Part shown: positions 11,233-11,283 of the stretch, piece by piece
How positions within the stretch are numbered: position 1 is the first letter of the stretch
Layout: the number at the start of each line of letters is the position of its first letter
Source: Clostridia bacterium
GTDB lineage: Bacteria; Bacillota; Clostridia; TANB77; CAG-508
DNA length: 64,000 nt
Assembly: GCA_046964515.1 (NCBI GenBank)
Contig: JBKUYM010000005.1
Location: 24,021 to 88,020, forward strand
Reading direction: 5' to 3'
Program-made: the position numbers and the translations under genes
The notes under the pieces: generated by a model
Database searches by the model: none
The model's input: the letters and a program-made list of their open reading frames with translations, nothing else
Told to the model about the DNA's origin: nothing

Positions 11233-11283
11233 TGTCCTTTGGGGACGTTCTTTGATGGACAAAAATGTCCATAGGGGACACAC
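11233..11283. repeat. Dispersed palindromic intergenic repeat, copy 1 (about 50 nt), immediately upstream of the dnaE RBS.
   Basis: TGTCCTTTGGGGACGTTCTTTGATGGACAAAAATGTCCATAGGGGACACAC. Shares more than 85% identity with the copies at 12066-12114, 23029-23080 and 36405-36456. Confidence 0.85.

Follow-up and report, generated by a model that had tools for sequence, protein, structure and literature searches.

Genes that resemble those of the REP-associated tyrosine transposases (RAYTs; REP, repetitive extragenic palindrome) and that are flanked by terminal inverted repeats (TIRs) were named TIRYTs by Di Nocera et al. 2013 (PMC3733652). Many of the TIRs of these genes share the sequence GGGGWSAS, and some of them form moderately abundant dispersed families that consist of singles, dimers and clusters (PMC3733652). 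TIRYTs have been equated with subclass 2.1 of TnpA-Y1, whose C-terminal domains are of the HTH_23, HTH_28 or DnaA-like kind (Quentin et al. 2018, PMC6006769). Nearly all descriptions of REP/RAYT and TIR/TIRYT systems come from Proteobacteria and a small number of other phyla, and none of the surveys cited here reports a repeat family of this sort in Firmicutes: a word search of the main text of Di Nocera 2013 for "Clostridi" and "Firmicutes" found neither (PMC3733652), Nunvar 2010 makes no mention of Firmicutes or Clostridia (PMC2817692), and Quentin 2018 names Clostridia once, for subclass 1.1 and not for 2.1 (PMC6006769). RAYTs of Group 1 are on record for Clostridia, where the repeat counts are modest (Bertels 2017, PMC5581495). 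Here we consider a repeat family with four copies, each close to 50 nt, in a 64-kb stretch of a Clostridia bacterium genome (contig JBKUYM010000005.1, positions 24,021 to 88,020; hereafter the window, positions being counted from its first letter). The family has modular forms, is scattered outside genes, is polymorphic among strains and is associated in relatives of the window organism with a gene for a Y1 transposase. We consider it probable that the four repeats are solo representatives of a REP/TIR-type miniature element, a kind that owes its origin and dispersal to a TIRYT-type, REP-associated Y1 (HUH) tyrosine transposase. The kind of system is therefore a known one (REP/RAYT, and specifically TIR/TIRYT), while the family itself is absent from the surveys cited.

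The initial annotation of the window had reported four dispersed copies of a palindromic repeat, and this was borne out by exact matching. The pattern GGGGACGTT-N5-ATGGACA-N4-TGTCCAT occurs four times in the window, at 11241-11272(+), 12074-12105(-), 23037-23068(+) and 36416-36447(-), and none of 100 dinucleotide-preserving shuffles contained a match to it. When oriented, the copies are 48-49 nt in length and have 39-46 of 49 positions in common (80-94% identity), and the inner 7-4-7 palindrome that had been described is present. Copy 1 (11233..11281, plus strand) consists of the unit TGTCC-TTT-GGGGAC-GTTCTTTG-ATGGACA, the bases AAAA and then the end TGTCCAT-A-GGGGACAC. Copy 2 (12066..12113, minus strand), which is in inverted orientation, and copy 3 (23029..23077, plus strand) were delimited by the pattern match and the oriented alignment, and copy 4 (36407..36455, minus strand) is situated between convergent genes and has a 2-nt spacer before its GGGACAC end. 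The proposed architecture with flanking GGGGAC repeats holds in outline, but copies 2 and 4 terminate in GGGACAC, with three G residues instead of four. Similarly, the repeats are GC-rich as had been stated, with 47-49% GC in the four copies, although the background is 29.3% for the window and not the 27% given earlier. All four copies are intergenic except for a 23-nt overlap of copy 4 with the 3' end of a gene. A search of the window with the four copies as an nhmmer profile, carried to E=100, added no copy to these; the degenerate partial copy that had been suggested at 50465-50490 was also missed by this profile, has only TGGGGACG in common with the family and is no longer counted by us. 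None of the Rfam 15 families matched at the four copies with its gathering score or better, the only matches in the window being a T-box and one tRNA.

The family extends well beyond this contig. A scan of one genome per species, covering 185,579 species, for GGGGAC-N8-ATGGACA-N4-TGTCCAT returned 19 DNA stretches, all of them from metagenome-assembled genomes (MAGs) of uncultured Clostridia or Clostridium, with 1-5 exact matches per MAG. A scan of Joint Genome Institute (JGI) metagenomes added 12 loci, most of which are from the human gut, and a scan of viral contigs for the pattern gave no match. Exact-protein look-ups recovered further strains of the window organism from human-gut metagenomes. 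Loci from these strains and from relatives are given below as L numbers.

Comparison with the relatives indicated that the 50-nt "palindrome" is a composite and not the basic unit. The basic unit, U, is ~30 nt long and reads TGTCC-N3/4-GGGGAC-N8-ATGGACA, with TGTCC as its outer end, and the central 7-4-7 palindrome is a junction at which the inner end of one unit (ATGGACA) is followed by the start of the next (TGTCCAT). Units are combined in several ways. The window form, in which U is followed by four bases and the end TGTCCAT-N-GGG(G)ACAC, is also seen in L003, L008, L009/L016, L017, L019 and L040; it has one outer end and a distinct inner end, and not two TIRs. In L004, L011 and L038, U is followed by four bases and an inverted U, giving a perfect palindrome of ~60 nt, and tandem or clustered units are found in L001, L002 and L018. 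U stands alone in some strains at the site of copy 4 (L026, L028 and L032), and in L012, L014, L018 and L047 it is closed by the module ACGTATGTT. This module, ACGTATGTT(GCTA) with the complement AACATACGT, caps the inner side of many units (L012, L014 and L018 among them) and, on either side of the transposase gene, also lies between that gene and the hairpin (L002 4500-4515 and 5335-5350; L047 5948-5957 and 6782-6791); it is not present in the window copies. When folded as single-stranded DNA (ssDNA), both strands of all four window copies scored better than shuffles (z -3.1 to -4.2), and the predicted structures are alternative, mutually exclusive hairpins formed from the TGTCC/GGACA 5-mers.

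The association with a transposase rests on eight sets of loci in relatives (L002; L003; L036/L050-51; L040/L052; L047-49; L066-68; L069-71; L072-77). A Y1 gene is directly upstream of radA in all eight sets, with protein identities of 42-76% between sets; on the opposite side of the Y1 gene there is GH15 in some sets (L047, L050, L052 and L069) and another gene in others (L066 and L072). In seven of the eight sets (L002, L003, L036/L050, L040/L052, L047, L066 and L072) the Y1 gene is flanked by inverted copies of U with their TGTCC ends outermost, and in L069 an element is adjacent on the downstream side only. The flanked genes come from seven or more species of related Clostridia. The flanking copies in L052 have the window-type architecture: the spacers are of 3 nt and the inner end is GGGACA(C/T). 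At the transposase locus the TGTCC end adjoins the Shine-Dalgarno (SD) sequence of radA. Judged from the sequences, the Y1 locus appears to be conserved in synteny across the sets and its gene to be single-copy and vertically inherited, and the arrangement has the appearance of a REPtron or, more precisely, a TIRtron. The apparent conservation of the element upstream of radA is the transposase locus itself. A perfect CodY-box-like palindrome, AATTTTCTGAAAATT, is present ~30 nt upstream of the SD of the transposase gene (L040 225-245, and L052), a hint that the L040/L052 species may place the transposase under nutritional control. Very many of the contigs with the transposase gene extend for no more than ~900-1050 bp, which is about the length of the gene with its flanks, and the flanking repeats may therefore be points at which short-read assemblies break.

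The open reading frames (ORFs) bracketed by element copies in L002 and L003, which represent two MAG species, encode proteins of 254-263 aa that match Pfam Y1_Tnp with E-values of 7e-14 and 4e-14. The best NCBIfam model is NF047646, REP-associated tyrosine transposase, which is matched over its full length at 53-68 bits, as compared with 21.6 bits for IS200. More than 1,000 homologs were found at E<=1e-20, and the protein is 250-290 aa long across relatives. Alignments of 20 and of 28 homologs have invariant columns at N-H-x-H (HUH), GHLF..R, Y-x-H-x-N-P (the region of the catalytic tyrosine) and WSS. The AlphaFold (AF2) model has a pLDDT (predicted local distance difference test) value of 91.4, and its top fold match in the PDB is 4ER8 (E 2.3e-7, target TM-score 0.67), a REP associated tyrosine transposase with a REP hairpin bound. 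The matches that follow are TnpA proteins of ISDra2, IS608 and IS200, with 2XMA, 2A6M and 2VJV among the fold matches. The model is helical over residues 139-253, and the C-terminal ~110 residues gave weak matches to HTH_23 in six of 28 members (best E 2.5e-3) and to HTH_28 in three of 28 (best E 2.6e-4), in agreement with TnpA-Y1 subclass 2.1.

The behavior of the copies, in the window strain and in relatives, is that of insertions that come and go. The most direct example is the site upstream of ftsH, where L019 carries an element of 62-68 nt flush with the SD (ttcctcctt|TGTCC...) while in L016, with flanks that are 86% identical, the site is uninterrupted. Two window genes (54697-55539 and 45698-47761) are without the element, although it is present at their orthologs in L007 and L010; the intergenic alignments of the window with L007 and L010 were too diverged for insertion boundaries to be placed, only the comparison of L016 with L019 being clean. 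Copies 1, 2 and 3 were present in every strain that covers them, copy 3 being identical in two other strains. Copy 4 is polymorphic, in that L026, L028 and L032 carry an allele that is 19 nt shorter and consists of U only, and the 19-nt piece missing from it is bounded by the direct repeat GGACACT. Relatives carry additional copies besides those that flank the transposase gene, and one human-gut contig (L038) has a palindromic copy. The paired form probably exists in the window species or a close relative, because L038 and window copy 3 have the same unit. The 42 non-redundant unit ends revealed neither a consistent target sequence nor a target-site duplication.

Based on these observations, we propose the following course of events. 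The inverted units would be the two ends of a TIRtron, with the single-copy transposase gene upstream of radA between them. By analogy with the RAYT in 4ER8 and with the TnpA of IS200/IS605, the transposase would recognise the hairpins of the unit in ssDNA; it may then cut and rejoin the DNA at the unit end, as these enzymes do, and act in trans on dispersed copies. The back-to-back inverted pairs would be a mobile form, like a REPIN (a REP doublet that forms a hairpin) or a miniature inverted-repeat transposable element (MITE), and the window-type copies would be solo ends. In this scheme the copies beside dnaE, valS and the S4-domain gene would be tolerated insertions in 5'-untranslated (5'-UTR) or intercistronic DNA and not a shared control element. 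Because copies are transcribed, they may have a side effect on mRNA folding or on access to the SD.

In the window, the copies are close to translation signals of the neighbouring genes, as the initial annotation had noticed. Copy 1 has its TGTCC end 11 nt from the SD of dnaE (7700-11209, minus strand). The TGTCC end of copy 2 is flush with the TAG stop codon (12114-12116) of an addA-like ORF, and 17 nt separate its GGGACAC end from the SD of the S4-domain gene downstream (11801-12037, minus strand, 78 aa). The TGTCC end of copy 3 is 5 nt from the SD of valS (20365-23010, minus strand), and this copy is downstream of the valS T-box leader (23127-23359, minus strand; Rfam RF00230, 104.7 bits, full-length) and its terminator, in agreement with the position first described between terminator and ribosome-binding site; the repeat is accommodated between the two signals with neither disturbed. 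Copy 4 does encode, as had been read, the final seven codons (MSIGDVD) and TGA stop of its neighbour, a UDPGP-family gene (36433-37338, minus strand). Two ordinary intrinsic terminators were also noted, that of the upstream HTH gene at 11325-11344, next to copy 1 (GAGC-AAAA-GCTC and a T-run), and a second, GTGGCTTTTTAAGCCAC, at 45640-45680, the site where relative L010 has the element instead.

Across the family, the proximity to ribosome-binding sites is non-random. Outer unit ends abut a stop triplet with zero gap in 13 of the 42 non-redundant cases (background 7%, p = 3e-6), and a reverse-complement SD is found within 16 nt of the outer end in 11 of 42 (background 4.7%, p = 3e-6); the background comprises all positions and not intergenic ones only, so that the size of both effects is overstated. 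At least eight of these stop triplets terminate real upstream ORFs, and the distance from the opposite end of the element (GACAC) to its neighbours is usually 17-75 nt. The outer TGTCC end thus tends to fit precisely into the gap from a stop codon to the SD that follows. This bias could reflect function or target choice. Its possible causes are a target preference of the enzyme, the survival in a compact genome of only those insertions that spare both signals, or co-option. In a bolder version of these ideas, the Y1 enzyme picks such sites, or only those insertions survive that work as an intercistronic or 5'-UTR module, and a domesticated transposase, kept beside radA all through a Clostridia lineage, would maintain a set of translation-coupled RNA or DNA hairpins. 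Such a module might act by occlusion of the SD by its C-rich arm, by ribosome pausing at stop-proximal hairpins or by guiding mRNA processing. We regard this version as unlikely; if it is true, REP-like repeats of Firmicutes would serve their host through the translation-coupled hairpin set.

Several observations count against our proposal that the repeats are products of a TIRYT-type transposase. The bias of the TGTCC end for stop codons and SDs is not predicted by simple selfish spread. The NF047646 scores of 53-68 bits are below the curated cut-off of 80, and searches of PDB sequences with the transposase and with its profile gave no match. A Y1 gene was not found by tblastn in the 64-kb window, and the homologs that were candidates for the window's species (P0077, P0037, P0101 and P0140) all belong to other species or samples; we nevertheless infer that the transposase is encoded by the window's own genome. 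The strict-pattern scan found few exact matches per MAG, and the copy density comes from the 64-kb window only, with its four copies. The GGGGWSAS sequence of TIRYT repeats fits GGGGACAC (window copies 1 and 3, and L040) and GGGGACAG (L003, L005, L007, L015, L017 and L069), but the commonest variant of the unit, GGGGACGT, misses it at position 7, and the element is without the GTAG tag of classical REPs. Finally, we know of no experimental demonstration that any TIRYT moves its own repeats.

Among the other explanations, the one that survives best is that the element is mainly an RNA element of 5'-UTRs and intercistronic spacers, whose mutually exclusive hairpins and GUCCCC-SD pairing tune translation initiation or mRNA stability or processing, or serve as a weak attenuator, with the transposase as no more than its origin. 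The fit of the TGTCC end to stop triplets (13 of 42) and to the reverse-complement SD (11 of 42) is as such an RNA element would have it, with the reservation already made about the all-position background. Copies 1-3 must be co-transcribed with dnaE, the S4-domain gene and valS, copy 3 being past the T-box terminator, and the element contains terminator-like hairpins and T-runs. The initial annotation had proposed the folding of these leaders as a check, and its outcome was divided: the leader of the S4-domain gene gave z = -4.3, but those of dnaE and valS, in which the distal UCCCC pairs with the SD, gave z = -0.8 and -1.9, no better than shuffles. Furthermore, copies face either way with respect to the downstream gene and hence give different RNAs; gene 3' ends or the spaces between convergent genes are the sites of copy 4 and of many copies in relatives, and the presence or absence of the element at matching sites means that the adjacent genes do not need it. 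We therefore consider a primary role as an RNA element unlikely, while effects on expression are possible as by-products of the TIRYT-type insertions that we favour.

The view that the repeats are operators, at which a dimeric DNA-binding regulator, for example a roadblock repressor, would bind TGTCC/GGACA half-sites (especially ATGGACA-N4-TGTCCAT) and co-regulate dnaE, valS, the S4-domain gene and others, appears very unlikely to us. Its attraction is that, in the window, a perfect 7-4-7 palindrome with regularly spaced 5-mers precedes three start sites at short distance, and that several neighbours in relatives act on DNA (dnaB, radA and rusA). However, the association with radA is accounted for by the transposase gene there, and the other neighbours, which include rpoC, ftsH, tpiA, ddl, a pseudouridine synthase gene, thyX, queH and the gene for a GGGtGRT protein, have no common theme; ylbF, an exonuclease III-like gene, an FtsX-type permease gene and an SNF2 helicase gene complete the list. 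Many copies follow stop codons or are placed between convergent genes, copy 3 is downstream of a T-box terminator and far from any promoter, and the sites are not kept at orthologs. Both orientations of the element occur, the window having two plus and two minus copies on one replichore, and promoter scans gave no sign that the element supplies a promoter. A regulon reading is thus unsupported, because the neighbours are unrelated housekeeping genes, both orientations are used and positions are not conserved between species, and it was dropped on these grounds and on account of the transposase locus beside radA. Of the interpretations listed at the outset, a REP/BOX-like element was right in kind, while an operator or shared leader did not hold up against the unrelated neighbours, the two orientations and the empty matching sites. 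To our knowledge the element does not match the LexA/Cheo box or the operators of CtsR, HrcA and others. Integron attC sites, CRISPR (clustered regularly interspaced short palindromic repeats) repeats and parS/dif/Ter sites were also rejected, the element being without cassette arrays, regular spacing or orientation bias.

A classical MITE, that is, an internal deletion of an insertion sequence (IS) with a DDE transposase that moves by cut-and-paste with target-site duplications, is scarcely credible: the back-to-back inverted form (L004, L011 and L038) does resemble two joined terminal inverted repeats, and TTCCTC is present on both sides of the insert at the filled L019 site, but the sole transposase-like gene bounded by the repeats is of the Y1/HUH class, which makes no target duplications, no consistent direct repeat is seen at the 42 unit ends, and the window copies have a single outer end and a distinct inner end in place of two TIRs.

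The repeats have consequences for annotation. Four of the six reading frames of the element are open, and as a result gene callers extend adjacent genes into the repeat: the S4-domain gene is called at 96-106 aa versus a real length of 78, and valS at 913 versus 881 (window 11801-12127 and 20365-23109; L020-L024 and L056), while the transposase homolog P0058 has a repeat-encoded C-terminal tail. An exact look-up of the true 78-aa S4-domain protein found no match because callers extend its ORF into the repeat. The small ORFs with the peptide SLMDKNVHR are, as first suggested, the repeat translated.

Two split genes in the window were noted in passing. The addA-like helicase-nuclease gene contains a frameshift near CCGGTACCGATATTGA that divides it in two (window 15030-15070; ORFs 15040-15810 and 12114-14804, minus strand), the first ORF ending in ...QVIRYRY before its stop and the second frame being open over the junction (GTDIEKLKYIQ...). 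This split is probably real and not an assembly error, because the same division into 256 aa and 896/897 aa is called in three independent metagenome assemblies. The recG gene also appears as two ORFs, one for a RecG_wedge part and one, in a different frame, for a helicase part, with an overlap of ~50 nt (window 26307-27503 and 27454-28356, minus strand), and it is split in several strains with slightly different boundaries (L025 2789-4838; L026 2774-4823).

The family is of interest as a clearly delimited one from uncultured human-gut Clostridia, with a likely enzyme, modular forms and visible polymorphism. Its repeats mislead gene callers, may break assemblies and could serve as strain markers, and the bias in their placement is a lead on how such elements choose their sites or survive at them.

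Small dispersed repeats in transcribed intergenic DNA near gene starts or ends, such as the Correia elements of Neisseria and the BOX and RUP elements of pneumococci, can alter the expression of neighbouring genes. Their sequences differ from that of the present element, and the presumed mobilising enzyme of RUP and Correia elements is of the DDE/IS630 type. With the IS200/IS605 elements (IS608 and ISDra2 TnpA), the system has in common the transposase superfamily (Pfam Y1_Tnp; fold matches 2XMA, 2A6M and 2VJV) and ssDNA hairpins as the presumed recognition elements. It differs from them in that tnpB was not seen beside the Y1 gene in the examined loci, in that there is one syntenic transposase locus where an IS has multiple copies, and in that no conserved target of 4-5 nt is found next to one end.

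The likeness to the REP, BIME (bacterial interspersed mosaic element) and REPIN repeats and their RAYTs (PMC2817692, PMC3116915, PMC5581495) is greater in form, since the repeats are short, GC-rich, hairpin-forming and extragenic and occur as singlets and inverted doublets. As in a REPtron, a transposase gene that appears single-copy and syntenic, with HUH and tyrosine motifs, is situated between inverted repeats, and 4ER8 and NF047646 are the best fold match and the best NCBIfam model, respectively. In contrast to REPs, each of which is one imperfect palindrome of 20-40 nt, the element is built from a 30-nt unit with alternative hairpins, and the CGTC in AACGTCCCC is inside the stem in the long forms and is not an unpaired tag. 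For this reason, that the CGTC is within the stem, we do not claim membership in the CGTC-tagged REP superfamily (PMC3733652). The protein also differs, being below the NCBIfam cut-off and having an extra C-terminal domain, and the copy number is probably below the hundreds that are typical of gammaproteobacterial REPs.

Compared with the TIRtrons and TIRYTs described so far, the unit stands out by strong self-complementarity and by the long perfect palindromes that it forms, its outer end is tight against stop codons or the SD, and the locus is fixed beside radA in many species. On the other hand, the Y1 protein is longer than classical RAYTs, with a helical C-terminal extension that has weak similarity to HTH_23 and HTH_28, and as in TIRtrons inverted repeats flank the gene and also form a dispersed family of singles, dimers and clusters.

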